A program made the position numbers and the translations under genes. The notes under the pieces are model-generated. The model was given only the letters and a program-made list of their open reading frames with translations, was not told where the DNA came from and searched no databases. 64,000 nt of DNA from Candidatus Doudnabacteria bacterium (GTDB taxonomy: Bacteria; Patescibacteriota; Doudnabacteria; UBA920): contig JARLHZ010000039.1 in the NCBI GenBank assembly GCA_031291995.1, positions 18,380 to 82,379 on the forward strand, read 5' to 3'. Positions 2,839 to 61,416 of the stretch are shown piece after piece; position 1 is the stretch's first letter; every line of letters starts with the position of its first letter.

Positions 2839-2842
2839 ATTG

Positions 2843-10382: not shown

Positions 10383-10472
10383 ATTTTTAATAAAAGTAAA
10401 TTTTTGGAATACACCCCATATTTTATATTTAAATAGAATTTAAGTCAAATTGGGTTTTTGGGCCTAAACGGG

Positions 10473-10915: not shown

Positions 10916-10989
10916 TGGCGCCGGCTGAAGGAACTGAACCCTCACTAACGGGTTTGGAATCCGTCGTCTTACCGTTAGACGAAGCCGAC
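10916..10989 (-). tRNA. candidate tRNA-Trp (anticodon CCA)
   Basis: Hand-folded cloverleaf: 7-bp acceptor with one G-U, U8, 4-bp D-stem with A14 and G18G19, anticodon loop UUCCAAA with U33 and A37, 4-nt variable loop, T-arm GAGGG/UUCAGUU/CCUUC, discriminator G, encoded CCA. Weak points are an A-C closing the anticodon stem and G at position 58. Confidence 0.55.
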
Positions 10990-24895: not shown

Positions 24896-24982
24896 TGGTG
24901 GCCGAGGAGGGACTTGAACCCTCACGACCTTGCGGTCATACGCACCTGAAGCGTACGTGTATGCCAATTCCACCACTCGGCC
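24896..24982 (-). tRNA. tRNA-Leu (anticodon CAG), long variable arm
   Basis: GGCCGAG acceptor pairs with CTCGGCC. D-loop AATTGG. Anticodon stem TACGC/GCGTA with loop TTCAGGT. T-arm GAGGG/TTCAAGT/CCCTC. Closely resembles E. coli tRNA-Leu. Encoded CCA. Confidence 0.85.
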
Positions 24983-36579: not shown

Positions 36580-36643
36580 AAATAAACCAAAATAGTTTCC
36601 GCTTTAATCGGAAACCAATAAATAAAAGTAATTAAGTAATCCT

Positions 36644-37393: not shown

Positions 37394-37484
37394 TTATAAA
37401 CTGATAAATTTTAATTAAGCAGTTTCAACTAAATTCCCCCCTGCTCTTTACCCGGTTCATTATGGGATGAACCGAAAAAGGGCG

Positions 37485-37531
37485 GGGGAGGGTCTGCTTG
37501 TTAATTAATTTTAATGAGCAGGCCCTCCCCC
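37485..37531. terminator. strong GC hairpin (GGGGGAGGGTCTGCT...AGCAGGCCCTCCCCC), terminator-like on the minus strand
   Basis: 15-bp near-perfect stem with an A-run upstream and none downstream on plus. Confidence 0.4.
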
Positions 37532-37614
37532 AAAGGATATAAACCACAATAGACAAAATTGACCCCTCCTTCGCTAAAGCTACGGAGGGTAAGCAAAAAT
37601 TAACGAACAAACTG

Positions 37615-37692
37615 TGCCATTGCGAGGGAGTGCATCCGACCGAAGCAATCTTTATCCTCGATAAGATCGCTTCGGCTGCACTCGCGATGACA
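37615..37692. repeat. dispersed palindromic repeat, copy 2 (complete ~80-nt hairpin)
   Basis: 5' arm CATTGCGAGGGAGTGCATCCGACCGAAGCAATCT is complementary to 3' arm AGATCGCTTCGGCTGCACTCGCGATG. Sits in the 5' leader of paralogue 3. Confidence 0.7.
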
Positions 37693-37712
37693 CCCAGGAA
37701 GGAAAATAAATT

Positions 37713-39143
37713 ATGAAAAAATTATTTATGCGCGCGGGATTGGCGACTGGGACTTTGGGGTTGATTATCGCTGGCGCCGCGGCGTTCAGCGCGTTTGAAG
37801 CGCATGTGGTCAATGTGACCGCGACTATAAGTAATGCCACGGATATTACTACATCGGCAATAACTTTTGGCAACGTGTTCCCGCAGGAAATTCTGCATAA
37901 CCCCGTGACGCTTGCCCTCTCCAGCTCATTTTTGAGCCAAAGCAATACCCGGGCCACCAGCGTGGACTATGTAATCAAACAAAAGCCAAAGTGCGCGTTA
38001 ATCCCCGGGATAACCGGAGACTTGCCGCCATACGCCGAAGTTGCCGATAACTCGGACGGGACTTTTGTCTGCCCCACTGGATACCAAGCTATGCCTCTGC
38101 TTTGCCCGTATCTTTCCAAGACTAGCCCGACAGAAGGCGACACCAGCGTCCCGTCTTTCCATGGCCCGACCGATTTAGCTTCGTGGACCGACGCGGTTAG
38201 CGTCGCGACAGAAGCTACCGGCCATTTGACCGCGGCAAACCCCAGCACCACTTGGGATATTGACTTGCACACCCCCTGTTTTTCCGGAGAATGCGCCCAG
38301 GACTGGAACAGCTTTGTAACCGGCGCTAACCCGGCGGTAACAACTACTTCGCAGCCTTATAACACGGCTTATTACCAGGCCTCCTCTACATATCAGGGTC
38401 TGCCCATGGGCTGCGACCTGTGGTACGAAGTCAGCGGAATTGGTACATCCACGGCTCCGAGCCAAAATATTGTTATGGTCGGCGCGGGGGATCTTGCGAC
38501 GAGCACTGTCGACGCCATCGCAAATCCTACAAAGTGGTTTATGTATAATGATGACAATAACACCATAGACAACACAATCGGATCCTTTGTCTCAGGACCG
38601 GCAACGCCGCCATACGGGACCGGAAGCGTCGAGTTTACATTAGGCGCAAATCCGCTTTCCCGCAAAAATATTGCGACCTATCAGTTCTCCGGTACTTCGC
38701 TTTCCGCCATCACGCAAATGTCTTTTGGGGCTTACTCGCATAGCGGAGTGGCCAGCTCAACCGAATCGCCGTTCTTTAATTTTAACGTCGATTTAGTCAA
38801 TTCAAATACTTTCCAGGGTCGATTGGTTTATGTGCCAAGCACCAATAGCGTAACTGTGCCTCAAGACGCATGGAACAGTTTCGATACCATTAACGGCGGC
38901 AACGCACTGTGGACCTGGTCGCATTTTGCCAGCAATGGCAACAAATGGCCCGATAACAATACCAACCAGTACCGCACATGGAATGATATTAAGACCGCAT
39001 TCCCAACCGCAAAGGTTTTGGTTTCAGATCCTTGGTTAGGCGTTCGCGTAGGCGAACCGGGACCGACAAACTATACCGGCGATGTCAATTTCTTTAGCAT
39101 CGCTACCGGCGGAACGCCGACGGTTTATGAATTCCACAATTAG
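37713..39143 (+). CDS. secreted surface protein, paralogue 3
   Basis: Nearly identical N-terminal 60 aa to paralogue 2, the same conserved Cys blocks, and a 250-aa unique C-terminal domain. Confidence 0.8.
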   Translation: MKKLFMRAGLATGTLGLIIAGAAAFSAFEAHVVNVTATISNATDITTSAITFGNVFPQEILHNPVTLALSSSFLSQSNTRATSVDYVIKQKPKCALIPGITGDLPPYAEVADNSDGTFVCPTGYQAMPLLCPYLSKTSPTEGDTSVPSFHGPTDLASWTDAVSVATEATGHLTAANPSTTWDIDLHTPCFSGECAQDWNSFVTGANPAVTTTSQPYNTAYYQASSTYQGLPMGCDLWYEVSGIGTSTAPSQNIVMVGAGDLATSTVDAIANPTKWFMYNDDNNTIDNTIGSFVSGPATPPYGTGSVEFTLGANPLSRKNIATYQFSGTSLSAITQMSFGAYSHSGVASSTESPFFNFNVDLVNSNTFQGRLVYVPSTNSVTVPQDAWNSFDTINGGNALWTWSHFASNGNKWPDNNTNQYRTWNDIKTAFPTAKVLVSDPWLGVRVGEPGPTNYTGDVNFFSIATGGTPTVYEFHN

Positions 39144-39875: not shown

Positions 39876-39960
39876 ACAAATTAAAAATTTTAAATATCAA
39901 ATCAAAATCAAATTTTAAAATTAAAACTTTGACTTGATTTGTAATTTGATATTTGATATT
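39876..39960. repeat. AT-rich palindromic intergenic module R2
   Basis: Arms AAATATCAAATCAAAATCAAA and TTTGATTTGTAATTTGATATTT are complementary. About 85% identical to R3. Confidence 0.65.
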
Positions 39961-39969
39961 CAGCAACTT

Positions 39970-40482
39970 ATGCCCACAATTGAATCTAAAATAATGTATA
40001 TGGAGCCGAAAGTAACGCCAAGGCCGGTGGCTATGCGGGTGTTTATTGGCATTGCAAAAGTTGCTTTGTATATCGCTTTTGTCGCGGCCGCGGTTTACTA
40101 CACCCCAAAAATTTTATCGCGAACCCTGCATACCCAGTACCCGCTGGCCACCATTACCTCCGGTTCCATGTGGCCGGTTCTAAAAGTTAACGATTTGATA
40201 TTAATGAAAGGCATAACCGCGGACCAGGCGCAAATTGGCCAGATTATTGTTTACCAAAGCGGCAAGGGCTATGTTATTCACCGGCTAATTCGCTTGCAGG
40301 ACGGAAAATTAATTACCCAGGGAGATGCCAACGACGTGGAAGACGCGCCGGTCAGCCCGAGCCAGGTGGTGGGACGGATTGTCTATGTTTTTGGCAGCCA
40401 TCCGTTCAGGATTCCATATTTGGGAATTGTGGCCCGGAGTTTGGGTCCGACGGTGCAGGAATTGGAGAAGGGGAGGAGTTAA
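39970..40482 (+). CDS. sipW: SipW-type (S26B, Ser/His) signal peptidase I
   Basis: N-terminal TM, catalytic-Ser box SGSMWPVL, then GDLILM and His box YVIHRLI. The ORF-track start at 39934 lies inside the palindromic repeat, so ATG 39970 (MPTIESK) is preferred; the start is uncertain. Confidence 0.8.
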   Translation: MPTIESKIMYMEPKVTPRPVAMRVFIGIAKVALYIAFVAAAVYYTPKILSRTLHTQYPLATITSGSMWPVLKVNDLILMKGITADQAQIGQIIVYQSGKGYVIHRLIRLQDGKLITQGDANDVEDAPVSPSQVVGRIVYVFGSHPFRIPYLGIVARSLGPTVQELEKGRS

Positions 40483-49158: not shown

Positions 49159-50577
49159 ATGAAAATTTTCAGAATAAAATTATTGCTTGCGACGGCGTTC
49201 CTGTTTTTGGGAATGGGAATTAAGGCGGTATTGGCTGACGAGGTGACGGGAAATTTATCTACCGGGCTCAATAGTACTGTCGGGACCACGGTTAACGGTG
49301 TTGTTATTTCCCCGCCTACGGCAAATCCCGCGGCCGGTACTTATAAAGGAACTCAGACTGTCACTTTGACCGCGGACGGATCTACGAGCATCTACTACAC
49401 TACCGACAACAGCGCGCCGACATGTTCAGCCGGCTTACCATATAACGGTGCTATATCTGTAACAGCATCAGTGACTATTCAGGCTATATCCTGTTATCCG
49501 GGTAGCGTATCATCGACCGTGGCTTCTTACGGTTATACAATCAACTCGTCTCAGTCACTTGCAACATCTGGCGGCGGCGGCGGGGGAGGGGCTTATTACA
49601 GTGTAATTATAGCCAAAAGCGGCGACGGAACAGGCAATGTAACCGCAAATGGTTCTTTGTGCAGCGGTTCCTGCGCTTTTATTGCGGGGACTTCTGTAAC
49701 TTTAACAGCCGCCTCGGAATCCGGTTCAAGTTTTGGCGGCTGGACAGGTGACTGTACCGGTTCAACAAAAACGTGCGCCCTGGTTTTAAACGGTAACAAA
49801 AATGTTGAGACGTCTTTTATTAAAGGGCAGGTCTTGGGGGAAAGCATTAGTACAGCTCACCCCAACGGTACCTTGGTAATAGATGGTAAGACGGTGTCCT
49901 TAATTGCCGGCGGGCAAATCCATGGTTTCCGCGATCCGCAGGAGTTTGCTTCTTACGGATATAAGTTCAGCCAAACGGTACCAATTAACGAGGCCGATAA
50001 ATTATTGCCCGCGGGCGATATTATGAAGGCTATGACCGGCACGCTGGCTCTGGACACTTCCGACAACCGTACCATTTATATGGTGGGCCAACAGTACAGC
50101 AAGCGGGGATTTGTTTCTATGCAGGTTTTTGCCGACTTGGGATATACCAAAGTCTCATCCTTAGTCCGCGGAATGTTTAAAATAAACCTGAGCGACTACC
50201 CGGCAGGGGATCCGGTGGCTTCGTCCACCGCGGCCCATCCGGAAGGCGCTTTGGTTTTGGATGGAACGGGAACGGTCTGGTGGGTTTTAGACGGCCAAAG
50301 AAGCGGCTTTGAATCGCTAACGGTGTTTAATACCTACGGTTTTACTTTTGACCGCGTGGTACCTGCCAACTCCGCCGACATGGCATTGCCTGTAGGACCA
50401 ACCGTTAAACTGCGTGACGGTACCCTTGTTTCAGACGGTGTCATAACTTACATAATTTCCGACGGCCAAAAATTGCCGTTTGCCGACTCTGCCGCAATGG
50501 TAAGCCGGGGTTACGATGTGAAGAACGCGGTTTCGGCCGACCTTGCCGGATACACCGCCGGACCAAATCTCAATTAA
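49159..50577 (+). CDS. secreted protein with CHB_HEX_C-like domain, divergent InlB B-repeat, Gly8 linker and three ~80-aa C-terminal repeats
   Basis: Signal peptide. ADGSTSIYYTTDNSAPT. GWTGDC...C...NGNKNVETSF. Repeated AHPNGTLVIDGKTV / AHPEGALVLDGTGTV units. Confidence 0.7.
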   Translation: MKIFRIKLLLATAFLFLGMGIKAVLADEVTGNLSTGLNSTVGTTVNGVVISPPTANPAAGTYKGTQTVTLTADGSTSIYYTTDNSAPTCSAGLPYNGAISVTASVTIQAISCYPGSVSSTVASYGYTINSSQSLATSGGGGGGGAYYSVIIAKSGDGTGNVTANGSLCSGSCAFIAGTSVTLTAASESGSSFGGWTGDCTGSTKTCALVLNGNKNVETSFIKGQVLGESISTAHPNGTLVIDGKTVSLIAGGQIHGFRDPQEFASYGYKFSQTVPINEADKLLPAGDIMKAMTGTLALDTSDNRTIYMVGQQYSKRGFVSMQVFADLGYTKVSSLVRGMFKINLSDYPAGDPVASSTAAHPEGALVLDGTGTVWWVLDGQRSGFESLTVFNTYGFTFDRVVPANSADMALPVGPTVKLRDGTLVSDGVITYIISDGQKLPFADSAAMVSRGYDVKNAVSADLAGYTAGPNLN

Positions 50578-50631
50578 ATTTATCAAAATAAGTAAAGCCA
50601 GGACGTCTCTCGTGGTCGTCCTGGCTTTTGT

Positions 50632-51462
50632 TTAAATGCCTGCTTTAAGCGCTTTCTTTTTGGCGATGCCGAGTAAGAGCAGCGCCGTGCCGCCGAGTCC
50701 CCAGGTTGCCGGCTCCGGGGTTGACCCGAGTGTGCTCGCATTGAGATTATCAATGTTGAGCGTCGGTGCGCCGTTCTGGGCGACCGCGAACCACACAAAT
50801 CCCGTGCCGCTAAGGTTTGCGCTGGTCAGGGTTTCTCCGTCGGAGTTGCCCAGTACCGCAGCGGTGCCAATCAGATTTGTTCCAGACAGGATATTCATGT
50901 TGGTCTGAACCAGGTCACCTGGATGGCTTCCTTTGGCGAAAGTCGCCTGGAAGGTATACCATCCCGGATTGTTGAGCACGGACATTGTGCCGCCCCCGTC
51001 AACCGCGACGCTTACCGAACTTCCATCATACGCCAGGCGGAAATTGTGCTCGTCGCCACAGGCGCTGTTGCCGCAACCGACGCCGTCCGGAATAGAGGTT
51101 CCGGGTGTGAAGTCAATCCAATAGTTGGTTCCGGCGCTGCTGGGATCAATATAGACGCTGATTGACTCGCTAAACGCACTGCCGGGGTAAACAGTCGGGT
51201 CGCCGCCGGCGCCAAAATAGGAAAATCCGTAATCGCCATACCCGCTCATGTAATCGTTAGGGGAGTTGGTGATTTGCGCGTAGAATCCACCGCTGGCAGC
51301 AGTGATTCCACCCGTTCCGGAGGCGACGCGGGTGATTGTCCCAACGGGAGACCCGCCATTTGACGGCGTCCAACCGCTGGTATTGGATTCGAACCCTTGA
51401 TTGAATATGGTTCCAGCCTGAGAAAGGCCGGCGAACATCAGGAAACATACAAACGTTTTCAT
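50632..51462 (-). CDS. secreted protein with C-terminal PEP-CTERM-type sorting signal
   Basis: Signal peptide MKTFVCFLMFAGLSQA. C-terminus ...TPEPATWGLGGTALLLLGIAKKKALKAGI (PEP + TM + basic tail). GAGAGG 6 nt upstream of ATG(MKTF). Confidence 0.7.
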   Translation of the reverse strand: MKTFVCFLMFAGLSQAGTIFNQGFESNTSGWTPSNGGSPVGTITRVASGTGGITAASGGFYAQITNSPNDYMSGYGDYGFSYFGAGGDPTVYPGSAFSESISVYIDPSSAGTNYWIDFTPGTSIPDGVGCGNSACGDEHNFRLAYDGSSVSVAVDGGGTMSVLNNPGWYTFQATFAKGSHPGDLVQTNMNILSGTNLIGTAAVLGNSDGETLTSANLSGTGFVWFAVAQNGAPTLNIDNLNASTLGSTPEPATWGLGGTALLLLGIAKKKALKAGI

Positions 51463-51804
51463 TCTGCCTCTCGATTTTTTGTAAACAACTCTTCGGTTTA
51501 GGCTCCGCTTAAAGTTCAAACGAAACCAAAAAAGCAGGCTTCAATATTCCTCCTGCCAAGTGTACATTTTACCAATAACATCGGGTTTTGGCAAGACTGC
51601 CTAACTAACCATTACAACCGGACATAAAAAAGTTGTGACAGAGCGCACAGGTCATAAGGCGAGACACTCTGAATGATAGTTAAAGTTGGAATAATATACT
51701 TTTATTATGTCCAAGCCGCGACGTGGAAGAATTTTTCAGTCAGCAGTTCCCTTACTTGCAAAAAATCCCCGGGGGTGTATATTATTCGTGAAAGGATTTT
51801 ACCT

Positions 51805-52110
51805 ATGTCACAAGCATATTTTGACGAGGGGACCAAAATCCAAACAAAAAAGTGCGTGGCGAATTTATTTAAAGTTTTGACAAAATTGCCGCCCCGGGCG
51901 GCCATGAGTTTGTACGGGGATTTGCTGACCGAAAGCGAAGCGGTCATGCTGGCCAAGCGTTTGGAAATCGCGGTCAGTCTGCTTTCGGGACAAACTTACC
52001 GAAACATCCAGCTTCGGCTGAACGTTACTCCTGGTACAGTGGCGCAAATAGCCAGAGTATTAAAAATTTCGGGCGAAGGTTTTAAAACGGCCCAGCAATT
52101 ATTTTTATAG
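51805..52110 (+). CDS. TrpR-like (YerC/YecD family) DNA-binding protein
   Basis: LYGDLLTESEAVMLAKRLEIAVSLLSGQTYRNIQLRLNVTPGTVAQIAR. RBS GAAAGGA before ATG(MSQAY). Confidence 0.65.
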   Translation: MSQAYFDEGTKIQTKKCVANLFKVLTKLPPRAAMSLYGDLLTESEAVMLAKRLEIAVSLLSGQTYRNIQLRLNVTPGTVAQIARVLKISGEGFKTAQQLFL

Positions 52111-52462
52111 GCCGTGTCGCTGCCTTCGGGAGAATCGGTACAACAGGAAACTTACGGTAAATTATAGATTGCTATCATTCGACGTAGCATTAAATATTCA
52201 TTGTCATCGGGTATTATTCGGAGAGATTGTCTACAGGTTGTCCACAGAAAGAAACTTAAATGGTTAAATTCCCAATGAATCGCGGGTTATCTCCCGGTCT
52301 TAAAATTTGCATTTTTTTTGGTTTCCTTTTACAATTGCTATACGTTGAGTTTTAATCACGCTTCCATTCGCAGGGTTTAATGGTTAAGTAAATATTAAAA
52401 CTGACCGGGAATTTTGAAACTATAGTTCTTTTTCCGGACAGAAAGCCCTTGAGCTTCGCCAT

Positions 52463-52792
52463 ATGTTCGAAAATAAAATGACACATTGCCCCAAGTGCCA
52501 CAAGCCGGTATTAAACGCCGGACAATTTTGGGGCTGCGCGCAATTTACCATTAAGTGTCCGTGGTGCCAGGCGGTTTTGACCCTGAGCGTTCAGCAGCAG
52601 GTTTCCGCCAAACTCAAAATTCCGGAGCAACCCGGCGGCTATCAGCAACAGCCGGAGTATGCCGCGGCGGCTCACGACGATTCGGGTTTTGAAACCCCGA
52701 TGCCATCGTCTTCGCGCAACGCCGGCTCCGACCAGGACGGCTTTAAAGTTGTCGGTTATATTTACCCCCAGGGGGACAAGCCCCCGGGTTAA
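52463..52792 (+). CDS. small zinc-ribbon protein
   Basis: CPKCHK...CPWCQ pair of CxxC motifs, then a low-complexity tail. Confidence 0.5.
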   Translation: MFENKMTHCPKCHKPVLNAGQFWGCAQFTIKCPWCQAVLTLSVQQQVSAKLKIPEQPGGYQQQPEYAAAAHDDSGFETPMPSSSRNAGSDQDGFKVVGYIYPQGDKPPG

Positions 52793-52971
52793 AAAAGATT
52801 AAAATTTAGTGCGGACTAAGTGAGCCGCGGGACTATGAGCGCCCACCTTGAACAGTTTCGATATTTATCGAAGCTAAGCAAGGTGGGCTCTTATTTTTTA
52901 AACAGAGCCGTGTAATATAAAGGTCGAACACAACAGAAAAAATAATTAAAGTTAGATAAGGAAATAAATTT

Positions 52972-53565
52972 ATGAAAAAAGTTATAGCATCTTTAGGCGC
53001 CGCCGCTATGGTCCTGACCTTTGCCGGAACAGCGTTTGCTTCTTCCAGCACCGGCAGCCACAGCCCGGTAAAGACAAAGGTCATTACCATCACCGGCACC
53101 ACCGTCACCAACACCAATGAACTGTCCATTGAAAATATGCAGAGCTCCGCTGCCTTTACCGGCGGCAACGTGATTGCCACCCACACCGGCGACGTTAACG
53201 GCGGCAGCAACACCAGCGGTAACGCCACTGCCACCGCCGCCGTCAATAACAGCGGCAACGGCATTCAGAGCACCGTGACCACGAACAGCAGCGAAGCCAC
53301 TCCGGCATCGCCCAGCGATTCGTCCAACGGCAGCAACAGCAAAGTAACCAGCACCGTTGTCACCAAGGACGGCGCGACCGTTACCAACGGCAACTTAGCC
53401 GAAGTCTCAAATGGCCAGTCGGCCATTTCCGGCACCGGTCTGAACGCGGTTACCAGCTGGACCGGCGACCTTAACGGCGCCAGCAACGCGTCCGGCACAG
53501 CCATGGGAGCCACATCGGTTGTTAATATGTTCAATCCGATAGTTTCCGTCGTGACCCGCAACTAG
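52972..53565 (+). CDS. secreted protein carrying the SGGN-GDVN-TSG repeat module
   Basis: Signal peptide. FTGGNVIATHTGDVNGGSNTSGNATATAAV and TSWTGDLNGASNASGTAMGA repeats. Terminator-like hairpin downstream. Confidence 0.7.
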   Translation: MKKVIASLGAAAMVLTFAGTAFASSSTGSHSPVKTKVITITGTTVTNTNELSIENMQSSAAFTGGNVIATHTGDVNGGSNTSGNATATAAVNNSGNGIQSTVTTNSSEATPASPSDSSNGSNSKVTSTVVTKDGATVTNGNLAEVSNGQSAISGTGLNAVTSWTGDLNGASNASGTAMGATSVVNMFNPIVSVVTRN

Positions 53566-53789
53566 TTTTAACCGATTTTGCCGAAACGTTTTTGGCGAGC
53601 CGGTTAAAAAAACGCGGCGGACATTACGATATACCGTAGTGTCCGCCGCGGACAGCATTTTTCCAACTAAACTCAAGACTACTTTTATCCGCAACTTATG
53701 GCGGCTAAAAGCGGTTTTAGGTTTAACCCGCGGTTTTTTCGGGATTAAAACCAAGGCCGTTAATCTAGTAATCTTAAAATAATAATTTT

Positions 53790-56700
53790 ATGTTTAATTT
53801 ATTTAAAAAAACTTCAGCCAATAAGAGGTCATCATGTTTTGGTATCGGCATGTTGCGGGTTTTCGCGATTGTGGTTTTAACTGTCTTGGTTATCCAGCCA
53901 TTAGCGGTTTTGGCCGATAGCCCCACGACCACTACTATTACTGACGCTAACAATAACCAAAATCCTGCCCAGCAGCAGGTGACCGGCGGCAGTCCGGACG
54001 CCTCAACCACGCCCGTCACCCAGGTAATATACACGGTCACGACCAGCACGCCGGACCAAATCGCGCCGGTGAATTCCACCACCACCCCGGCAGACGCGGG
54101 AACCGCGGCCAGCTCCACGGACCCGAGCCTGCAAAATGCTACCTCCACTCCCGATACATCCACCACCACGCCGGATACCTCCGCTACCACCACCCCGGAC
54201 TCAACTTCTACCACGACTCCGGGCGGCACGATTGCGCCCTGCACGGATACCGGCGCTTCAACTTCCACTCCGGACACAACCAGCACCACCACGCCGGACT
54301 CCCAAACTGCGTCCGGCTCCAACCAGCCCTGCGGCCAGACCGCGACCACCACCGACAGCTCCGCTCTGTCCGATCCCAACGCGGCGACCACCACTTTGGA
54401 TTCGACCACCACTTTGGATCTTTTAAATTCCAATAATTTGGACGCCACCACCACGGCAACCACCACGGCCAACAGCGGTTTAAACGATACCGTGTCCAAT
54501 AACGGCGATATAAATTACGCGACCACCACCACCGGAGACGTTAACGTTTACGCCAATGTTTTGACAGTCGCGAACATTAATTTGGTGAATTCCCAGATTG
54601 TGCAGATGAATGACAGTTTTAACAACCTGGCCGCTGACTTGTATTTAAACCAGCAGGAGCTTTCGCCGGGTCAGCGCACCCAGGATTTGGTTAATCCGAT
54701 TTGCAGCAGCGGAGGAGTGAGCTGCCAGAGCATTACCACTTTTAAGCTGACAAACCAGAATTCGGCTAACGTGAGCAATAACATCGCCGCCTCGGGCAAC
54801 AGCGGCGGCAACGCGATTGCCGCGAGCGGCGACGTAAACCACAGTTCCATAACTACCGGTAACGTTAACGCGGTGGTCAACATTCTTAACATTGTCAATG
54901 CCAATGCCGTAAATTCCACCTGGACGATTGTAACCTTTAACGTGTTCGGCAACTGGACCGGCGATTTGGTTATGCCTTCGGAATTATATTTTACCGATGC
55001 CATGTCCGTGGGTGCCAACAGCAACAGCGACATTTCCCAGGTGCAAAAAGTTATATTAGACGTCAACAACAGCAATTCATCCAAAATTACCAATAATGTT
55101 TCGGTTCAGACCGATACCGGAAATAATACGGTTCAGGGGATTTCCGACATTAAGGGGAACTCCGGGGATATTAATGACGCCCAGGTCAGCACCGGAACCA
55201 GTACCGCGACTTCCGCCGTCACCAACTTAAGCAACCTGACCGCGTATAACAGTTCCTGGTTTTTAGGCTTGATTAATATTTTAGGGCAGTGGTCGGGAAA
55301 AGTATATTCATTGCCCAGTAACGTGCAGGCCAATTATAATCCCACCGGCTTTACTTTTGTTTCCGCTTCAAATCCGCCATCCGCGGGAATTCCCAGCCAA
55401 TTATTGGCGCAGTTATCCGAGCCTAACGCGACCACCACCACGGCCCAGGACAACAGTTCGCTCCAGCCCACCGGTACCAGCACGCTGGACAGTACCGCTA
55501 CCGTACAAATGGATAACAGCAACCAGGCGACAATAAATAACAATGTGACCGTGGATGCTACCACCGGCCAAAACGCCATCGCCGCCGGCGGGGACAGCAA
55601 TCATACCGCCATTACCACCGGCAATGCCACGGCGCTGGCCAATATTTTAAATTTTGCCAACGCCAACCTTATAAATTCCGATTTATATGTTGGCCTGGTG
55701 AATATTTTTGGAAATTGGCAGGGCAATATAGTGTTCGGTTATCCCGATTTGTCCGTTAGCCAGAGCTCCGTTCAAAACCAGATTGCGGGCGGCGCTGGCG
55801 CTCCGTTAACGGTTAACGCCGCGTTTGCCAACCAGGGTAACGGTTCCATGGCCGATACCCAATTGGAGTGGAAGTTTGACCCGACGCTGTTTACGCTGGC
55901 AAATGTTCAGGCTTCCTCTACCGACCCGAATAACGGGGCGGTACAAGCGACTTCAACATACCAAACTATCGCCCCGGGTGATATTCGAGTCGATTTGGGC
56001 GGGCTGGAACCGAACCAAAATGGCAACGCGGTATTCCAGCTGCAAAGCCTGGGGGATCAGACCAACGATCCGGCCGACAATTTTTTTGCCAACATTTTTG
56101 GAAACGGCCCGGAAATTAATTTGACCAACAACCAGAATAATTTAAGCGTCTTGCCGGCAACCGGCACGCCTGTTTCCGTTACTACAAATAATTCGTCAGA
56201 CTCGGGTACGCAAAACACCCAAACCAATTCAAACAACAGCTCCGCTCCGTCTGGTGGTGGTGGCGGCGGTGGTGGTGGTGGCGGCGGGGGCGGGGGATTT
56301 GTATCCAATAGTTCTTCCGGCCAAATTGGGGTCTACCCGGATGTCCTGAATATTTATAAGACTAATTCCGCTACCGGACCGGTCAATCCGGGCATGACGA
56401 TTAATTTTGTCATTACCGTTGACAACGACGGCAATAATTCCTTAAGTAACCTGGTCGTTTACGATACCATGACCGGGCCGGACGGCAGTACCATCAGTTC
56501 GAAAAATTTTAGCGTTCCGGATATGGCTACCCGCCAGGAGGCTTACGTTAAATATTCCCTGGCAATTTCCCCGAACGCTCCGGCTGGGAATTATACCAAC
56601 TCGGCTTATGTTCAGGGCTTGGACGGTAACTTAATAACGGTGCGCAGCAAAACCACGGCATTAAGCACCTTTACCATTGCCGGGCCGGCCGTTATCAACT

Positions 56701-57368
56701 CCCAAAATCCCGATGGCACCTTGAATTCCTCCACTTCTCCCCTGACTTTGATAAATCCGGACAAATCACCGGACAGCAGTTCAACAACCCCGATTTCCGC
56801 CACGTGGCCTTTGGGATTCTTGAAGATGGAATATGGGCAGGTTTTGGGGGCATCCTGCGTACAGCCAAGTTTTGCCGCAGATTTGCGCTATGGTTTTCAC
56901 TCTAACGATGTAAAAGCTTTGCAGACTTATTTGAATAATAACGGTTATACCCTGGCCGCCAGCGGTCCCGGTTCACCAGGGCACGAAACTTTTTATTTCG
57001 GCCCCCTGCTCAAAGCCGCGCTGTCCCGCTTCCAAAAAAATAACGACATTACAGAGCTTGGGTTTTTTGGCTCCGCCACCCGCTCATTCCTTAACGGTTT
57101 GTTAAATACCACCGGCGCGGCTTTTTGTCCGGCTCCAGTGGCCCCGCCGGCAACGCCAAAAAAGCCGATAGCGGCCGCAAAGCCACATGTGCTTGCTTCA
57201 AAGGGCGGGAAGGCTTCCCCGGTGGTAAAAACCAAGCCGGCCCCAAACGCCAATTTAGGCGCGGCAAAAGTCGAACATAATGCGGGGTTGTCCGGAAAGC
57301 CCGTTGTCAACACTCCCGCAGTAACCGGCATCTGGTCAGGACTGGCGAAATTATTCAGTTTTCAATAG
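53790..57368 (+). CDS. giant secreted T/S/P-rich protein with GDVN modules, DUF11 domain, Gly15 tract and C-terminal peptidoglycan-binding domain
   Basis: Signal/TM. Repeated GDxN-containing units. VYPDVLNIYKTN...MTINFVITVDNDGNNSLSNLVVYD (DUF11). LRYGFHSNDVKALQTYLNNNGY...PLLKAALSRFQKNN (PG_binding_1). Confidence 0.8.
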   Translation: MFNLFKKTSANKRSSCFGIGMLRVFAIVVLTVLVIQPLAVLADSPTTTTITDANNNQNPAQQQVTGGSPDASTTPVTQVIYTVTTSTPDQIAPVNSTTTPADAGTAASSTDPSLQNATSTPDTSTTTPDTSATTTPDSTSTTTPGGTIAPCTDTGASTSTPDTTSTTTPDSQTASGSNQPCGQTATTTDSSALSDPNAATTTLDSTTTLDLLNSNNLDATTTATTTANSGLNDTVSNNGDINYATTTTGDVNVYANVLTVANINLVNSQIVQMNDSFNNLAADLYLNQQELSPGQRTQDLVNPICSSGGVSCQSITTFKLTNQNSANVSNNIAASGNSGGNAIAASGDVNHSSITTGNVNAVVNILNIVNANAVNSTWTIVTFNVFGNWTGDLVMPSELYFTDAMSVGANSNSDISQVQKVILDVNNSNSSKITNNVSVQTDTGNNTVQGISDIKGNSGDINDAQVSTGTSTATSAVTNLSNLTAYNSSWFLGLINILGQWSGKVYSLPSNVQANYNPTGFTFVSASNPPSAGIPSQLLAQLSEPNATTTTAQDNSSLQPTGTSTLDSTATVQMDNSNQATINNNVTVDATTGQNAIAAGGDSNHTAITTGNATALANILNFANANLINSDLYVGLVNIFGNWQGNIVFGYPDLSVSQSSVQNQIAGGAGAPLTVNAAFANQGNGSMADTQLEWKFDPTLFTLANVQASSTDPNNGAVQATSTYQTIAPGDIRVDLGGLEPNQNGNAVFQLQSLGDQTNDPADNFFANIFGNGPEINLTNNQNNLSVLPATGTPVSVTTNNSSDSGTQNTQTNSNNSSAPSGGGGGGGGGGGGGGGFVSNSSSGQIGVYPDVLNIYKTNSATGPVNPGMTINFVITVDNDGNNSLSNLVVYDTMTGPDGSTISSKNFSVPDMATRQEAYVKYSLAISPNAPAGNYTNSAYVQGLDGNLITVRSKTTALSTFTIAGPAVINSQNPDGTLNSSTSPLTLINPDKSPDSSSTTPISATWPLGFLKMEYGQVLGASCVQPSFAADLRYGFHSNDVKALQTYLNNNGYTLAASGPGSPGHETFYFGPLLKAALSRFQKNNDITELGFFGSATRSFLNGLLNTTGAAFCPAPVAPPATPKKPIAAAKPHVLASKGGKASPVVKTKPAPNANLGAAKVEHNAGLSGKPVVNTPAVTGIWSGLAKLFSFQ

Positions 57369-57401
57369 AGATTAATTCGCAGAAAAGTTAAGCATACGGC
57401 C

Positions 57402-58010
57402 ATGGCTATTAAGAGGGCACAGAATTTTTATCGAACTGCCACAGTTTCGGCGGCTGTCACGCTGCTGGCAGTTTGGCTGTTACCGGCTTTGGCTTTTGCC
57501 GATTCGTATGTTAGCGTCTCAACCGGCAACAGCAGCAGCGAGTCGGTAATAAACAATTCGGAGAGCAATTCTTCGTCGCGGACTTATATTTCCGCCACGG
57601 CCAACGGCCAAAACCGGACGGTAATTATTAACGGCGACGGAACTTCCACGGATAATTCGGTTTTTGTCCGCTTAAGATCGCAAAATGGTATCGCGACCAG
57701 CACAATAAGGATTAAAACCCCGGCCGGGAATTACTACCAGTTGATTCCGAACCGAACCCGTAACTCCACTACTACCATCCAAATAAAACCGGACCGGCCG
57801 ATATTTGCCAGTTCAACCGCTCCGGGCCTTAACACCACCAGCCAGGTTTACCTTCCCTGCGCCCCGGAATCGGGTTCCGTCTTTTACCGATTATTCCCGT
57901 TTTTATTCGGACGCCATTGTCCCATGGCCGCCTCGACTTCCGCGGTTTCGGCAGGCGTCCCGGCCAACACCGGCTGGACCGGAAAATTGTTTGGTTGGTT
58001 TAACTGGTAA
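57402..58010 (+). CDS. small secreted protein
   Basis: Signal peptide with ALAFADS. S/N-rich. 202 aa. Confidence 0.55.
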   Translation: MAIKRAQNFYRTATVSAAVTLLAVWLLPALAFADSYVSVSTGNSSSESVINNSESNSSSRTYISATANGQNRTVIINGDGTSTDNSVFVRLRSQNGIATSTIRIKTPAGNYYQLIPNRTRNSTTTIQIKPDRPIFASSTAPGLNTTSQVYLPCAPESGSVFYRLFPFLFGRHCPMAASTSAVSAGVPANTGWTGKLFGWFNW

Positions 58011-58036
58011 GGAGCTTAAAATTAAATTTTGAATTT

Positions 58037-60730
58037 ATGGGTATTCGCGCTACAAAAAAATCAGGGCAATCGGCAACGGTTTTTGGATTGTCTGCGGCGG
58101 CCATAATAGCCGCGCTGTGGCTAAATTTTATCCCCCAGCCGATACAGGCGGCGGGAGCGGCGCTGGCACCGAGCGGTATTGGTAACTATGATCAATGGCA
58201 GGCAAATACCGGAAATAAAATCAGCGCCGTGGCCTCCAACGACGGCGACAGCTCATTTATAACTTCTTCCAGCACTTCGGCCGCCGAGACTTATAGTTTT
58301 CCGGGAGCCGGTTTGCCGGCCGGCGCCACGGTTAATTCCATAACTTTGACCGCGCAGGTAAAAAATGGCGGTTCGATTTTTGTTTGGCCGGCTGTACAGC
58401 TGCTTTTGGAAAACGGCGCGAATTCCGCCAATGACGGTGCCGCGGGACATATTGTAATTGATAATTCGGCATATACGCCGATTTCCTGGACAATGGCCGA
58501 TAATCCCTTAACGAGCGCGCCGTGGACGCTAAGCGATGTTAATGCCTGGACGGTTAATTTTGGCGTCGGCGTGGCCGCGGCAAGCGCCGGTACGGCCATG
58601 GTAACCCAAATTTCCTTAAGCGTTGATTATAATCCGCCGCCGGCGGCCAATCCGCCCCTGCCGGCCCGGACTTGCGGGTTGGATATCGCCCTGGTCCTGG
58701 ATAACTCCGGCAGTATTAACGGCAGTCTGCCGCAAATGAAGAGCGCGGTTAATAATTTTATTTCATCGTTGCTCCCCGGCACACCCACGGATTTTTCCGT
58801 AACATATTTTAACACCGCCGGACATGTCCAGCAGGTATTCACAAACAGCACCACCAGCCTGGCGAGCGCCATAAATAACATTCCGGCTTCCGGCGGAGAC
58901 ACCAACTGGGAAGACGGACTGCTCAAAGCCGCGGGTACATTTGACCCCCGGCCCGGCAGCCTCCATCCAAATTTGATAATTTTTGCCTCTGACGGCGTAC
59001 CGAATAAATATAACGTTTACGGCTCGGGCGGCAGCGTGACCGGCACGCAGGGCAATGGCAGCAACGGCGGCGACCCGCTGGCGCTGTCCGCGGCCGTCAC
59101 GGAAGCCAACGCCATTAAAACTTCCGGCACCAGAATTGTGACGTTGGGCATAGGCAGCAGCATTAATCAAGCCAATATGGTAGCCATTTCCAGCTCGGAC
59201 GCTTACAACAGCGTTTCCGATTTCAGCCATTTGGCTCCGGTTTTGCAATCTTTGGCCGCCGGCATGTGCGGCGGAACAATCACCATAAATAAAAAAATCG
59301 ACGCCGACGGAAATTTGGCGACGACAAACGACCAGACGAACGGCGGTGCGGGCTTTACTTTTGACATTACTCCGGGCTACGGCGGCCAGATTACCGACGC
59401 AAACGGACAGACTCCGGCCGTGGCCGTAACCGCCGGCAGTTACAGCGTGGCCGAAAGCTCCATCCCGGGCGGTTACGCTCCCTTGGGCGGCAGTTGCAGC
59501 GGCGCGACCAATAACGGTTCCCCGAGCGGCACCGCGGTTAGCGGCCTGCAGATTGGGTTAAACGATATTGTCGCCTGTATCTTTTACAATTCGCCAATCG
59601 GCGGGGGCGGGGGCGGTCCGGGTACCACCACCCCGACGAGTACGGATATCAGTATTTTAAAATCCGTTGATAAGCCCGCGGTTAATGCGGGTAATAAGGT
59701 TAATTTTACTTTAGCGGTTACCAATTACGGGCCGGCCAACGCGACCGGAGTTATGGCTTCCGATACGCTGCCTTCCGGCCTGGTGTTTGTCTCGTCCACC
59801 TCCACTTTAGGCAGTTATAATGCCACTACCAGCCTGTGGAATATTGGCAACCTCGCCGTGGGAGCCTGGGTCACGACTACCATAACCGCCGCGGTTACCG
59901 CCAGTTCCAGCGGACAAAGTTTAACCAATACCGCCGCGGTCAGTTCTGTCACCCCGGATTTTAATCCCGCCAACAATTCCTCCAGCATTTCGGTTTCAGT
60001 CGGCGGCGGCGGGGGAGGGGGGTGCACCTCAAATTGCGGCGGCGGCACATCCACTCTGCAATCGGATTTGTCGATAACCAAAACCGTGGACCATTCCTCG
60101 CCCAATCCCAATGATGCCATAAATTATATTTTGGTCGTTAAAAATTTGGGACCGGACGGCGCCACCGGCGTTGTTGCCACCGACACGTTGCCTTCCACGG
60201 TGACGTTTGTGTCGTCAACCTCCACCTTGGGCAGTTTTGACTCTACCACCAGTTTGTGGACGATTGGCAATTTGGCTAACGGCGCATCGGCCACTACCAC
60301 CATTACTGCTTCTGTTAACAGTTCCGCGGCCGGGCAAAGTATTGCCAACACCGCTTCAGTAACTTCCGCTATCCAAGATCCAAATTTATCCAACAACAGC
60401 TCTTCCGCCGGCGGCACCGTTGCCGGTTCGGGGTCGGGCGGCGGCACCACCAACGGGGGATGCTCGGGCAGCTGCGGCGGCGGCTCCCCATCCGGCGGCG
60501 GGGGAGGCGGGGGAGGCGGCGGGGCGCCTGGAGCCGGGCTGACATTTGGCGGCGGCCAGGTGTTGAGTACTTCCACCGGGCTATCTATGATATTGCCCGC
60601 GACGGCGCCACAGGTTTTGGGAGCCTCGACATTATTGCCGCGCACCGGCGAGCCGGTAACCGAACTTGGCCTGCTGTTTTTACTTAGCATTGCGGGCGGC
60701 CAGATTCTGTTAAAAAGGCGGAAAATTTAA
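58037..60730 (+). CDS. LPXTG-anchored surface protein with vWA domain and two DUF11 repeats
   Basis: N-terminal signal. MIDAS motif DIALVLDNSGSI. DUF11 units (LAVTNYGPANATGVMASDTLPSGLVFVSSTSTLGSY; LVVKNLGPDGATGVVATDTLPSTVTFVSSTSTLGSF). C-terminal LLPRTGEP + TM + KRRKI. Confidence 0.85.
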   Translation: MGIRATKKSGQSATVFGLSAAAIIAALWLNFIPQPIQAAGAALAPSGIGNYDQWQANTGNKISAVASNDGDSSFITSSSTSAAETYSFPGAGLPAGATVNSITLTAQVKNGGSIFVWPAVQLLLENGANSANDGAAGHIVIDNSAYTPISWTMADNPLTSAPWTLSDVNAWTVNFGVGVAAASAGTAMVTQISLSVDYNPPPAANPPLPARTCGLDIALVLDNSGSINGSLPQMKSAVNNFISSLLPGTPTDFSVTYFNTAGHVQQVFTNSTTSLASAINNIPASGGDTNWEDGLLKAAGTFDPRPGSLHPNLIIFASDGVPNKYNVYGSGGSVTGTQGNGSNGGDPLALSAAVTEANAIKTSGTRIVTLGIGSSINQANMVAISSSDAYNSVSDFSHLAPVLQSLAAGMCGGTITINKKIDADGNLATTNDQTNGGAGFTFDITPGYGGQITDANGQTPAVAVTAGSYSVAESSIPGGYAPLGGSCSGATNNGSPSGTAVSGLQIGLNDIVACIFYNSPIGGGGGGPGTTTPTSTDISILKSVDKPAVNAGNKVNFTLAVTNYGPANATGVMASDTLPSGLVFVSSTSTLGSYNATTSLWNIGNLAVGAWVTTTITAAVTASSSGQSLTNTAAVSSVTPDFNPANNSSSISVSVGGGGGGGCTSNCGGGTSTLQSDLSITKTVDHSSPNPNDAINYILVVKNLGPDGATGVVATDTLPSTVTFVSSTSTLGSFDSTTSLWTIGNLANGASATTTITASVNSSAAGQSIANTASVTSAIQDPNLSNNSSSAGGTVAGSGSGGGTTNGGCSGSCGGGSPSGGGGGGGGGGAPGAGLTFGGGQVLSTSTGLSMILPATAPQVLGASTLLPRTGEPVTELGLLFLLSIAGGQILLKRRKI

Positions 60731-60810: not shown

Positions 60811-61416
60811 ATGGACAGCAAACAGGCCATAAAAATTTTAAAAACCCTGGCTTTGACCGCCATAATTTTCGCGGGGCTGTTGGTAATATTTAACTATAAT
60901 TATTTTTGGCAGAATATCCGTTATGATTTGTACGGGGTAAAGCAGGCGGCATTCCCCGCGGCGCCGGTACCTTCCGCCGCCGGGGCGCATTCTTATATTT
61001 TAGCCGTTCCGTCCCTGGGAATTTCCGCCCCGGTTATTTACGCCACCGCGACCGGGGAAACGGCCTTTCAGGCCGCCCTGAAAAACGGCGTCGCGCACTA
61101 TCCGGGTACGGCCGATCCCGGCCAGACGGGAAATTGTTATATTTTCGGGCACTCTTCCGATTATATCTGGAGCAGCGGGCATTATAAAAACGTTTTTGCG
61201 ATTTTGCCTAAAATAAAAAAAGGGGCGGATATAATTATCAGCGGCCGGCAAAACCAGTATACCTATACCGTAACGGACAGTCGGATGGTTTCTCCGGGCG
61301 ATTTGTCCGTCTTAAGCCAGCAGACCGGCCAAAAGAAAATTTTAACTTTGCAAACCTCCTATCCCATAGGTACCGCCTTGGCCAGGTGGATTGTTGTCGC
61401 CGAAGTGAGCAGATAA
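60811..61416 (+). CDS. sortase-fold protein with catalytic Cys replaced by Ser
   Basis: N-terminal TM. Aligns with SrtA across the His (YIFGHSS vs LAGHTF), the Cys strand (KILTLQTSYP vs KQLTLITCDD) and the Arg (ARWIVVAEV vs EKRKIFVATEV). The codon at the Cys position is TCC. Confidence 0.7.
   Translation: MDSKQAIKILKTLALTAIIFAGLLVIFNYNYFWQNIRYDLYGVKQAAFPAAPVPSAAGAHSYILAVPSLGISAPVIYATATGETAFQAALKNGVAHYPGTADPGQTGNCYIFGHSSDYIWSSGHYKNVFAILPKIKKGADIIISGRQNQYTYTVTDSRMVSPGDLSVLSQQTGQKKILTLQTSYPIGTALARWIVVAEVSR

Follow-up and report, generated by a model that had tools for sequence, protein, structure and literature searches.

Patescibacteria (CPR) are thought to have no outer membrane, which raises the question of why one of them, an ultra-small Doudnabacteria bacterium, would encode a surface protein with a PEP-CTERM-type tail. 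We addressed this in a 64-kb stretch of Doudnabacteria DNA (hereafter, the window). The gene concerned (50632..51462, minus strand) represents a known kind of protein in an unexpected host: a PEP-CTERM-family member in Patescibacteria. It probably encodes a horizontally acquired surface protein with a concanavalin A (ConA)-like lectin fold, whose tail now serves as a plain C-terminal membrane anchor.

The product is a 276-amino acid PEP-CTERM-family protein identical to the NCBI entry for hypothetical protein P4L74_07420 of a Candidatus Doudnabacteria metagenome-assembled genome (MAG). Its ATG lies at 51462 (a mechanical open reading frame [ORF] list begins upstream, at a TTG at 51519), and the reading frame is unbroken through 276 codons. 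A Shine-Dalgarno (SD)-like GAGAGG 6 nt 5' of the ATG and a promoter-like site approximately 100 nt upstream of it (TTGCCA-17-TAAAAT with a TG extension; 51566..51594, minus strand) are consensus matches only. Between this gene and its convergent neighbor (49159..50577, plus strand) is a GC-rich hairpin (50585..50628, unstranded) with a perfect stem of 10-12 bp and a T-run after it; its predicted RNA fold is -20.2 kcal/mol (z = -5.9; 0 of 200 shuffles as good). The hairpin resembles an intrinsic terminator and is flanked by T-rich sequence on either strand.

Three segments can be distinguished in the protein. Residues 1-16 (51415..51462, minus strand) read as a Sec-type signal peptide, with predicted cleavage between MKTFVCFLMFAGLSQA and GT; the aligned N-termini of relatives are equivalently hydrophobic and finish in A-x-A, and the AF2 model places a helix at residues 2-11. 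Residues 17-246 (50725..51414, minus strand) are predicted by AF2 and Foldseek to form a beta-sandwich ectodomain of the ConA-like lectin/glucanase fold. The model is all-beta (pLDDT 79), and its best PDB matches are TtX122A, a GH16 beta-1,3-glucanase, the L-type lectins VIP36/ERGIC-53, and calreticulin (E 3e-5 to 1e-3, TM 0.4-0.5). Direct reading of the protein did not find the GH16 catalytic motif ExDxxE. Residues 247-276 (50635..50724, minus strand) constitute the PEP-CTERM-type tail, in which STPEP is followed by a 16-residue hydrophobic span and KKKALKAGI; AF2 models a helix at residues 251-273.

The C-terminus, TPEPATWGLGGTALLLLGIAKKKALKAGI, had been described in an earlier note as a PEP motif, transmembrane (TM) helix, and basic tail that together define exosortase substrates. 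The ending itself is exactly as given there (...STPEPATWGLGGTALLLLGIAKKKALKAGI), and homology to PEP-CTERM tails stands, but the label "defining PEP-CTERM" is too strong, since the tail scores below the PF07589 gathering threshold (GA; 16.4 bits, E 0.01, versus 20.7) and TIGR02595 gives no match to the protein at E<=1. The latter model recognizes 9 of 13 aligned family members but not the window protein. A failed profile search together with a genome free of exosortase-family genes had been proposed as the mark of an ordinary C-terminal TM anchor, and the first of these is what TIGR02595 returned. Using a tail HMM that we built from 79 relatives, the window protein scores 23-24 bits and the runner-up ORF tail in the window 7 bits; ranked among 80 tails, it is 78th (24.1 bits). 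No other product in the window has a PEP-type tail. Judged from full-length homology with the tail in register and from the margin of our HMM over other ORFs, the resemblance goes beyond chance, and the tail is best read as a homolog of PEP-CTERM tails that fails curated thresholds. Its geometry is right, but the tail is weak: the hydrophobic span equals the family median of 16 residues (mean KD 1.56), whereas thresholds are missed and the basic cluster comprises four Lys and no Arg (relatives, 83% Arg). The span is short and Gly-rich, and no 19-residue Kyte-Doolittle window across it scores as high as 1.6; stable anchoring of an unprocessed protein is therefore not guaranteed.

Twelve homologs (E 1e-83 to 3e-7) can be aligned in register through (V/T)PEP, the hydrophobic span, and the basic cluster. 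Their C-termini are of PEP, IPAPG, or VPLP type, and the tails of full-length homologs pass the Pfam model. The best sampled homolog is 60% identical to the window protein. The family is large (2131 clusters among 1.84 billion representatives), and its N-domain variously ends in VPEP, IPAPG, VPLP, VPEGG, or a Cys-containing module (CK.GGW...KNQGQC); some N-domains are embedded in giant multidomain proteins. The NCBIfam model NF038129 (family PEP-CTERM protein) matches 10 of 13 aligned members. In the window protein, residues 163-269 correspond to model positions 82-192 (E 0.0012), but at 18.7 bits the match falls far short of the 65-bit cut-off, and we thus consider the protein related rather than a member.

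The best 80 taxon-labeled relatives among 185,579 GTDB species genomes are all non-Patescibacteria and mostly belong to outer-membrane-bearing phyla (Acidobacteriota, Planctomycetota, Hydrogenedentota, Proteobacteria, Verrucomicrobia, Armatimonadota, and a few others). The N-domain phylogeny called for by the earlier note, a simple neighbor-joining tree without support values, groups the window protein with P0002, P0003, and P0006 in a clade whose labeled members are Acidobacteriota; the closest homologs are metagenome contigs without a taxon label. At locus L001, a PF09721 exosortase is encoded 1.1 kb away from the sister gene P0003, in the company of a sigma-54 two-component pair and VPDSG-CTERM proteins. 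Close homologs of this exosortase (84-89% identical) carry the JGI name "exosortase C (VPDSG-CTERM-specific)," and a cluster 72% identical to it includes a member from a Terriglobia MAG. Base composition of the window gene (GC 0.564, GC3 0.635) is like that of acidobacterial orthologs (0.56-0.60 and 0.60-0.67), with the whole window at GC 0.476 and mean ORF GC3 of 0.535, although the gene is no strong outlier among its immediate neighbors (GC 0.50-0.58). Moreover, two metagenome contigs with orthologs of the adjacent gene (60-68% identity) have no window-gene homolog beside them. On the strength of the non-Patescibacteria relatives, the Acidobacteriota-labeled clade, the donor-like GC and GC3, and this absence, the gene appears to have been acquired horizontally by Doudnabacteria from outer-membrane-bearing soil bacteria, an origin that had been floated before and is now well supported. 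We infer that the donor was most likely a Terriglobia-like member of the Acidobacteriota from the same habitat.

A GC content equal to that of Acidobacteriota orthologs would also be expected of an acidobacterial gene wrongly joined or binned to a CPR contig. We regard such an artifact as extremely improbable. All named best matches of the tryptophanyl-tRNA synthetase (TrpRS) in the window are from Doudnabacteria or Patescibacteria, which assigns the 93.9-kb contig to this group by sequence, and CPR-type genes occupy both flanks. In per-run Logan assemblies of SRR23300977, 978, 980, and 986, the gene is identical and the gene order the same (>=99.99% DNA identity). Both junctions are reproduced with 0-1 mismatches in these four independent single-run assemblies (contigs of 7.7-29.8 kb), so the gene is not a misjoin. 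The terminator-like hairpin common to the gene and its convergent neighbor also speaks against an artifact.

A genuine gene could nonetheless be a recently arrived passenger, functionless in its new host and neutral or decaying, with a tail kept for lack of time to erode. Donor-like composition with little amelioration, the single copy, its absence at the matching site on related contigs, and a tail score at the bottom of the family range are consistent with this, yet we consider it rather unlikely. The 276-codon frame is intact, and a promoter-like site, an SD-like sequence, and a terminator hairpin are predicted for the gene itself. CPR genomes tend to be streamlined. The best sampled homolog is just 60% identical, meaning that the donor has not been sampled or else that the gene has gone undisrupted for a substantial time. 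Finally, the basic cluster has changed from mostly Arg to all Lys with its position kept, which suggests that a stop-transfer function was maintained in an AT-richer host. Retention of all architectural elements at family spacing could reflect continued recognition instead of recent arrival.

Continued recognition would be expected if a working PEP-CTERM/exosortase (or archaeosortase-like) pathway operated with its enzyme encoded elsewhere in the genome, the tail being cleaved and the protein joined to a surface acceptor. As the earlier note had observed, no exosortase or archaeosortase is visible among the ORFs of the window: no 8-TM exosortase-like ORF occurs in its 64 kb, where only two polytopic ORFs, both ABC-3 permeases, have about that many TM segments (9 and 8 predicted), nor does an exosortase-like ORF occur on Logan contigs that extend the window by 3 kb downstream and 7 kb upstream. 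This search covered a minor part, approximately 74 kb, of a genome whose size is probably about 1 Mb. Together with the tripartite tail retained at family-typical spacing and an intact gene with plausible predicted expression signals, this coverage leaves some room for such a pathway, but we judge it unlikely. The tail misses the Pfam GA and TIGR02595 and is the only one of PEP type in the window. Relatives labeled Thermoleophilaceae or Chloroflexota, groups expected to lack an outer membrane, have C-termini other than PEP-CTERM. Full-text literature searches returned no paper linking exosortases or archaeosortases with CPR/Patescibacteria. PEP-CTERM has been described as confined to outer-membrane-bearing bacteria (PMC3237569; 10.1101/2023.06.07.544157), and single-target sorting enzymes tend to adjoin their targets, as in the rhombosortase/GlyGly-CTERM survey (PMC3237569).

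The only sorting enzymes recognized in the stretch of host genome covered are a sortase and a SipW-type peptidase. The LPXTG system was correctly identified by the earlier note: a VWA protein with two DUF11 domains (58037..60730, plus strand) ends in LPRTGEP, a TM segment, and KRRKI, and the sortase follows at 60811..61416 (plus strand; Pfam Sortase 83.2 bits; TIGR01076 51.9, cut-off 39.35). The enzyme is nearest to class D/E, below those cut-offs, and makes a dedicated pair with the one LPXTG substrate it has, whose gene lies 81 bp upstream. The SipW-type component placed in the same locus is genuine as well. An archaeal/SipW-type signal peptidase I is present (39934..40482, plus strand; TIGR02228 76.5 bits, cut-off 51.85), and three genes (34495..36579, 36644..37393, and 37713..39143, plus strand) whose products share near-identical N-termini (...AGAAAFSAFEAHVVN) are its presumed substrates. 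However, all lie outside 50632-60730, and the SipW-cognate signal model matched nothing, these three proteins included. Processing of the PEP-type tail by a resident non-cognate enzyme, either the sortase 9.3 kb away or another membrane protease, is conceivable in that sortase and PEP-CTERM signals share a tripartite design (PMC3237569), but we give it very little weight. No LPXTG-like motif occurs in the tail (EPATWG contains one residue too many and no Leu), its PEP runs directly into the helix, whereas sortase signals typically have a spacer there (10.1101/2023.06.07.544157), and a canonical LPRTG substrate is already encoded next to the sortase.

Given that no cognate sorting enzyme is encoded in the approximately 74 kb visible, the tail is most likely just a membrane anchor. 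We favor a model in which one copy from a family that is normally PEP-CTERM-tailed, and found mostly in outer-membrane-bearing bacteria with exosortases, would have entered the Doudnabacteria lineage from the Terriglobia-like donor. The gene is intact, and a promoter-like site, a ribosome-binding site, and a terminator hairpin accompany it. The product would be exported by Sec and its signal peptide removed. With no cognate exosortase presumably acting in the new host, the short hydrophobic helix and Lys-rich stop-transfer end would hold it in the membrane, uncleaved and in type-I orientation. Its lectin-like domain would then be exposed at the outer surface of the cytoplasmic membrane, beside the sortase-, SipW-, and pilus-dependent proteins of the 34-64 kb island. 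Its fold similarity (TM 0.4-0.5) suggests a probable glycan-binding or adhesive role.

The PEP-CTERM/exosortase system (PF07589, TIGR02595 with EpsH/XrtA; Haft et al. 2006, summarized in PMC3237569) is found in Gram-negative bacteria, where the tails co-occur strictly with exosortase, often in at least 20 proteins per species (PMC3237569; bioRxiv 10.1101/2023.06.07.544157). The rhombosortase/GlyGly-CTERM survey showed that a single-target ("dedicated") enzyme and its target are usually encoded adjacently (PMC3237569). Single and non-adjacent in the approximately 74 kb covered, the window gene fits neither pattern. It shares with PEP-CTERM proteins the N-terminal signal peptide, a non-enzymatic beta-sandwich passenger, and the tripartite tail, in which PEP leads straight into a short TM helix and a basic cluster follows. 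It differs in its Patescibacteria host, in being the one such protein with no exosortase in the 74 kb seen, and in a tail under the PF07589 cut-off, without a TIGR02595 match, that ends in Lys only rather than being Arg-rich.

The most similar locus is the acidobacterial exosortase C (XrtC)/VPDSG-CTERM locus L001. P0003 shares the clade, size, and signal-peptide/beta-sandwich/tail layout of the window protein, and its N-domain is approximately 60% identical in the trimmed alignment of the tree (56% by BLASTP). However, its tail is VPEGGSG rather than TPEPAT, and the exosortase, sigma-54 pair, and VPDSG-CTERM neighbors are all missing beside the window gene. Such variation recalls suffix-swapping surface-protein families, in which the same passenger domain is found with different C-terminal sorting signals (PMC3237569). 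Likewise, one N-domain bears VPEP, IPAPG, VPLP, VPEGG, or Cys-module ends across this family, although described tails match the enzyme of their host and the window tail matches neither sortase nor SipW-type peptidase. ConA-like lectins and glucanases (VIP36/ERGIC-53, the calreticulin globular domain, GH16, and TtX122A) differ at the level of sequence (8-16% identity, TM 0.4-0.5, no GH16 ExDxxE in the window protein), but share with it a similar size and the predicted two-sheet beta-sandwich.

The gene at 50632..51462 on the minus strand is intact, with 276 codons, and the C-terminus that the earlier note had given for its product (...LGSTPEPATWGLGGTALLLLGIAKKKALKAGI) agrees exactly with the translation. 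NCBI holds an identical sequence from a Candidatus Doudnabacteria MAG, hypothetical protein P4L74_07420, encoded on a 93,897-bp contig. Inspection and alignment with relatives indicate an N-terminal, Sec-type signal peptide (MKTFVCFLMFAGLSQA, followed by GT). Candidate expression signals include a promoter-like match to consensus (TTGCCA-17-TAAAAT) about 100 nt upstream of the ATG and an SD-like GAGAGG 6 nt before it. Just 3' of the stop codon, between this gene and the convergent gene at 49159..50577, lies a GC-rich perfect hairpin followed by a T-run (-20.2 kcal/mol, z = -5.9).

All named proteins among the 120 listed matches to the TrpRS of the window come from Candidatus Doudnabacteria or "Patescibacteria group," and by this marker the contig is assigned to the Patescibacteria. 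The window also encodes a surface toolkit typical of CPR bacteria (a sortase, a SipW-type peptidase and genes for type IV pili, the last continuing into the extension contig L008) and machinery of monoderm type (sortase/LPXTG and a protein with a PG-binding domain). CPR bacteria are generally regarded as lacking an outer membrane. A PEP-CTERM-type gene in such a contig could be an artefact of assembly or binning, but both gene junctions are reproduced in separate single-run Logan assemblies (SRR23300977, 978, 980 and 986), with 0-1 mismatches over 7.7-20.8 kb. These four independent assemblies rule out a chimeric contig and render an artefact extremely improbable. The gene shows 0 differences between the assemblies, all of which are clonal, and so offers no population polymorphism on which selection could be assessed.

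A search of 5.8 billion proteins returned 12 relatives of the window protein (E 1.4e-83 to 3.4e-7). Eleven of the 12 align with it over their full length, tail included; these tails have a (V/T/I)PEP, IPAPG or VPEGG motif, then a short run of hydrophobic residues and, last, basic ones. The twelfth, P0006, is truncated C-terminally. Profile searching with these 13 sequences retrieved 2131 clusters from 1.84 billion representatives, and 200 clusters reach E<=1e-30. In the 276-residue window protein the PEP motif is at residues 249-251 and PEPAT leads directly into the hydrophobic span; 16 residues separate PEP from the first basic one, which is also the family median. The span is of rather low hydrophobicity (mean KD 1.56, between the 5th and 25th percentiles of relatives), and it is missed by a 19-residue KD window at 1.6; AlphaFold2 models a helix at residues 251-273. 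The basic cluster, KKKALK, is all Lys with 0 Arg; relatives have 83% Arg at their basic ends.

Curated models score this tail below their thresholds. PF07589 assigns it 16.4 bits (E 0.01) against a gathering score of 20.7, and TIGR02595, the model that the earlier note had named for the C-terminus, yields no match at E<=1; at the same limit, the two models match 11 and 9, respectively, of the 13 aligned members. The tail scores 10.6 against a cut-off of 35 for NCBIfam PEPxxWA-CTERM, and the whole protein 18.7 bits (E 0.0012) against a 65-bit cut-off for the NF038129 family PEP-CTERM protein. With an HMM that we built from 79 non-redundant PEP tails of relatives, the window tail scored 24.1 bits, ranking 78 of 80 (median 39.7). 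Applied to the tails of all window ORFs, this HMM gave 23 bits for the window protein and <=7 for every other, and a single PEP-type tail was recognized in the window. A chance motif is ruled out by this separation together with the full-length homology, in which the tail is in register. Judged by its sequence, the tail truly belongs to the PEP-CTERM family, but at its periphery, and it fails curated thresholds. The earlier statement that it "defines" an exosortase substrate was too strong: homology to PEP-CTERM tails holds, but the profile scores stop short of such a definition.

Across the family, the same N-domain carries PEP, IPAPG, VPLP or VPEGG tails or a Cys-containing module, or is fused into giant multidomain proteins, and relatives labelled Thermoleophilaceae and Chloroflexota have C-termini other than PEP-CTERM. 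These variable C-termini show the same behavior as the suffix-swapping described for sorting signals (PMC3237569). In locus L001 (9331..12585 and 10001..10909), the relative P0003 has VPEGGSG instead of the PEP motif and lies among VPDSG-CTERM proteins beside exosortase C, so that tail type has evidently switched within one small clade. A conserved Cys-containing C-terminal module (...DCK.GGW..F..PFKNQGQCV.FV...) replaces the PEP-CTERM tail at L044, L052, L056, L058, L059, L061, L062, L072 and L090; these more distant family members are hosted by Acidobacteriota, Binataceae and "delta proteobacterium" MAGs. At L147 (316..4283), the sister-clade homologue P0006 stops resembling the family at its C-terminus exactly where three tandem tyrosine-recombinase (Phage_integrase) genes start, and a mobile element bearing this recombinase trio appears to have inserted into the 3' end of the P0006 gene.

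The relatives of the window protein place its ancestry outside the Patescibacteria. A scan of 185,579 GTDB genomes, one per species, found 84 relatives, of which 80 were kept. They belong to Acidobacteriota (Korobacteraceae, Bryobacterales, Terriglobales and Pyrinomonadaceae), Planctomycetota, Hydrogenedentota, Proteobacteria, Verrucomicrobia, Armatimonadota and Gemmatimonadales, with a few from Chloroflexota and Thermoleophilaceae; none is from Patescibacteria. Identity to the window protein reaches 42% among them, and closer relatives (48-61%) lie on unlabelled metagenome contigs. In a neighbour-joining tree of the N-domain, an analysis the earlier note had proposed, the window protein clusters with the homologues P0002, P0003 and P0006, and the cluster falls within a clade in which the labelled sequences are from Acidobacteriota. 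P0003 is encoded 1.1 kb from a PF09721 exosortase, adjoined by a sigma-54 two-component pair and VPDSG-CTERM proteins. Homologues 84-89% identical to this exosortase carry the JGI name "exosortase C (VPDSG-CTERM-specific)," and a cluster 72% identical to it includes a member from a Terriglobia MAG. Base composition points the same way: the window gene has a GC content of 0.564 and a GC3 of 0.635, in line with acidobacterial orthologues (GC 0.56-0.60, GC3 0.60-0.67, in loci of 58-60% GC), in a window with a GC of 0.476 and a mean ORF GC3 of 0.535 ± 0.076. Horizontal acquisition of the substrate, which the earlier note had raised as one possibility, is upheld by this composition, by the distribution of relatives and by the nesting within an Acidobacteriota-labelled clade. 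Most simply, this Doudnabacteria lineage received the gene once, from a donor resembling Acidobacteriota.

Orthologues of the adjacent gene (49159..50577) occur on two JGI metagenome contigs, L091 and L092 (60% and 68% identity), and neither has a relative of the window gene beside them. As downstream synteny is not conserved in these contigs, the comparison shows only the absence of the gene, not a clean insertion site. On L092 synteny breaks exactly where the window holds the PEP-CTERM gene, and a small ORF downstream of the orthologue (2454..2843) resembles, on reading, an IS200/IS605-type TnpA, next to unrelated genes. A phage or plasmid vector was rejected, with no relatives found in IMG/VR viral contigs or PLSDB plasmids. 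Within the window, an ISNCY-family transposase-like gene (23581..24843, plus strand; NF033594, E 3e-42, below the equivalog cut-off) sits beside tRNA-Leu (24896..24982), and this mobile element is 26 kb from the PEP-CTERM gene.

For the sorting enzyme, window ORFs of at least 130 aa were compared with Pfam and/or NCBIfam, bar a few short ones, and TM segments were counted in all. No exosortase-like gene is present among these ORFs of the 64-kb window, in agreement with the first reading of the sequence; the only polytopic membrane proteins with a comparable number of spans are a pair of ABC-3 permeases, predicted to have 9 and 8 segments. Logan extensions likewise contain none in 3 kb downstream (pilus genes) or 7 kb upstream (YibE_F, YchF and ribosomal protein S6). 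A search with the L001 exosortase was uninformative on CPR exosortases, since all 120 matches listed were close exosortase C relatives. PEP-CTERM is reported to co-occur strictly with a cognate exosortase in the genome (PMC3237569); full-text literature searches found no meaningful published link of exosortase or PEP-CTERM with CPR. We consider an enzyme encoded elsewhere quite unlikely, and the genome as a whole probably lacks one.

An AlphaFold2 model of the window protein (pLDDT 79) shows an all-beta sandwich, of the two-sheet jelly-roll type, followed by the C-terminal helix. Foldseek returned 37 PDB matches at E<=1e-3, with concanavalin-A-like lectin/glucanase folds. The leading ones were TtX122A, a GH16 beta-1,3-glucanase, the L-type lectins VIP36 and ERGIC-53, and calreticulin (E 3e-5 to 1e-3), at TM scores of 0.4-0.5 that make the assignment one of fold level only. 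None of the five Glu residues (25, 107, 139, 215 and 250) sits, on reading the sequence, in the GH16 catalytic ExDxxE motif. The sequence thus gives no support to an enzymatic role, and the reading as a GH16 enzyme was rejected. Our best guess from the model is that the protein may be a glycan-binding or structural surface module.

On balance we favor a course in which the protein would be exported by Sec and its signal peptide removed, after which the C-terminal helix and Lys-rich stop-transfer end would keep it tethered, uncleaved, in the presumed absence of an exosortase. The lectin-like domain would then be displayed at the surface of the cell, together with the numerous adhesin-like proteins encoded in the 34-64 kb island. 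A gene of such foreign ancestry might instead be a recent passenger without function, which we judge unlikely; the switch from Arg to Lys at a kept position suggests, at the level of sequence, that the stop-transfer function of the tail is being maintained in an AT-richer host.

Two further sorting signals had been described alongside the PEP-type tail. The LPXTG/sortase pair is as claimed: the product of 58037..60730 (plus strand), with VWA and DUF11 domains, terminates in LPRTG-TM-KRRKI, and a sortase gene 81 bp downstream (60811..61416) exceeds the Pfam Sortase cut-off (83.2 against 26.6). The two form a dedicated pair. Processing of the PEP-type tail by this nearby sortase, or by another protease, is very improbable; the tail has no LPXTG-like motif, and sortase cross-recognition was rejected as the main reading. 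For the SipW-cognate N-signals the picture is mixed. Three consecutive plus-strand genes (34495..39143) share an almost identical 35-residue N-terminus (MKKLFMRAGLA.GTLGLIIAGAAAFSAFEAHVVNV, with ...AAAFSAFEAHVVN in common) and differ in their mature parts, one having SpaA-like prealbumin-fold domains and two no family match. They are followed by a gene for a SipW-type (archaeal-type) signal peptidase I (39934..40482; TIGR02228 76.5 against 51.85), which scores 31.3, below 190, with the Bacillus SipW equivalog. Peptidase and like N-termini are real, but they lie 10-16 kb outside the place assigned to them, and the NCBIfam SipW-cognate signal model matches none of the three candidate substrates.

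Among other surface proteins, the products of 53790..57368, 58037..60730 and 49159..50577 (plus strand) contain homopolymeric Gly runs, of up to 15 G, as apparent linkers, and the 1192-aa protein has a PG_binding_1 domain at its C-terminus in addition to low-complexity sequence rich in Thr/Pro. A secreted 432-aa protein (3791..5089, minus strand) with Peptidase_S74, the intramolecular chaperone of phage tail-spike/endosialidase proteins, is encoded directly upstream of a ZnuABC-type transporter operon. Rfam identifies three tandem tRNAs on the minus strand at 10762..10989 (10762..10833, 10838..10909 and 10919..10989); ARAGORN gave the last only (tRNA-Trp).

The window protein belongs to a known family in an unexpected host, and its interest is modest, lying mainly in Acidobacteriota-to-CPR gene flow and in a sorting signal orphaned in nature. 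Gene transfer can evidently carry such substrates from one envelope type to another, and this one offers a natural test case for the fate of a sorting tail without its enzyme. The findings point to Terriglobia-like Acidobacteriota as donors of genes to this Doudnabacteria lineage, with which they may thus also be physically associated. Should whole-genome searching reveal an exosortase, the host range given for the system would have to be revised. It is a long shot that this Doudnabacterium, or CPR more widely, processes PEP-CTERM-type tails, whether through a homologue of exosortases/archaeosortases whose gene lies elsewhere or through an enzyme unrelated to them. If so, no sorting pathway of exosortase type would have been described before in an ultra-small episymbiont that lacks an outer membrane, and the pathway might display, for attachment, a lectin copied from an acidobacterial host.

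With the PEP-CTERM domain the window tail shares a PEP motif at the extreme C-terminus that abuts a TM-length hydrophobic segment, in a protein with a signal peptide; the terminal basic cluster is usually Arg there, whereas here it is Lys. PEP-CTERM is found in bacteria with an outer membrane, and a rhombosortase/GlyGly-CTERM survey showed that single-target ("dedicated") systems usually encode the enzyme beside its target (PMC3237569; bioRxiv 10.1101/2023.06.07.544157). Given that its pairing with exosortase is reported as strict and confined to outer-membrane bacteria, a clean PEP-CTERM-family gene in a CPR genome is a small exception. PEP-CTERM systems usually have many paralogous tails per genome, in Gram-negative/outer-membrane hosts, whereas the window has one such tail and a patescibacterial host by TrpRS. 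Single, non-adjacent to an enzyme, sub-threshold and in a CPR genome, the tail fits none of the patterns in the literature.
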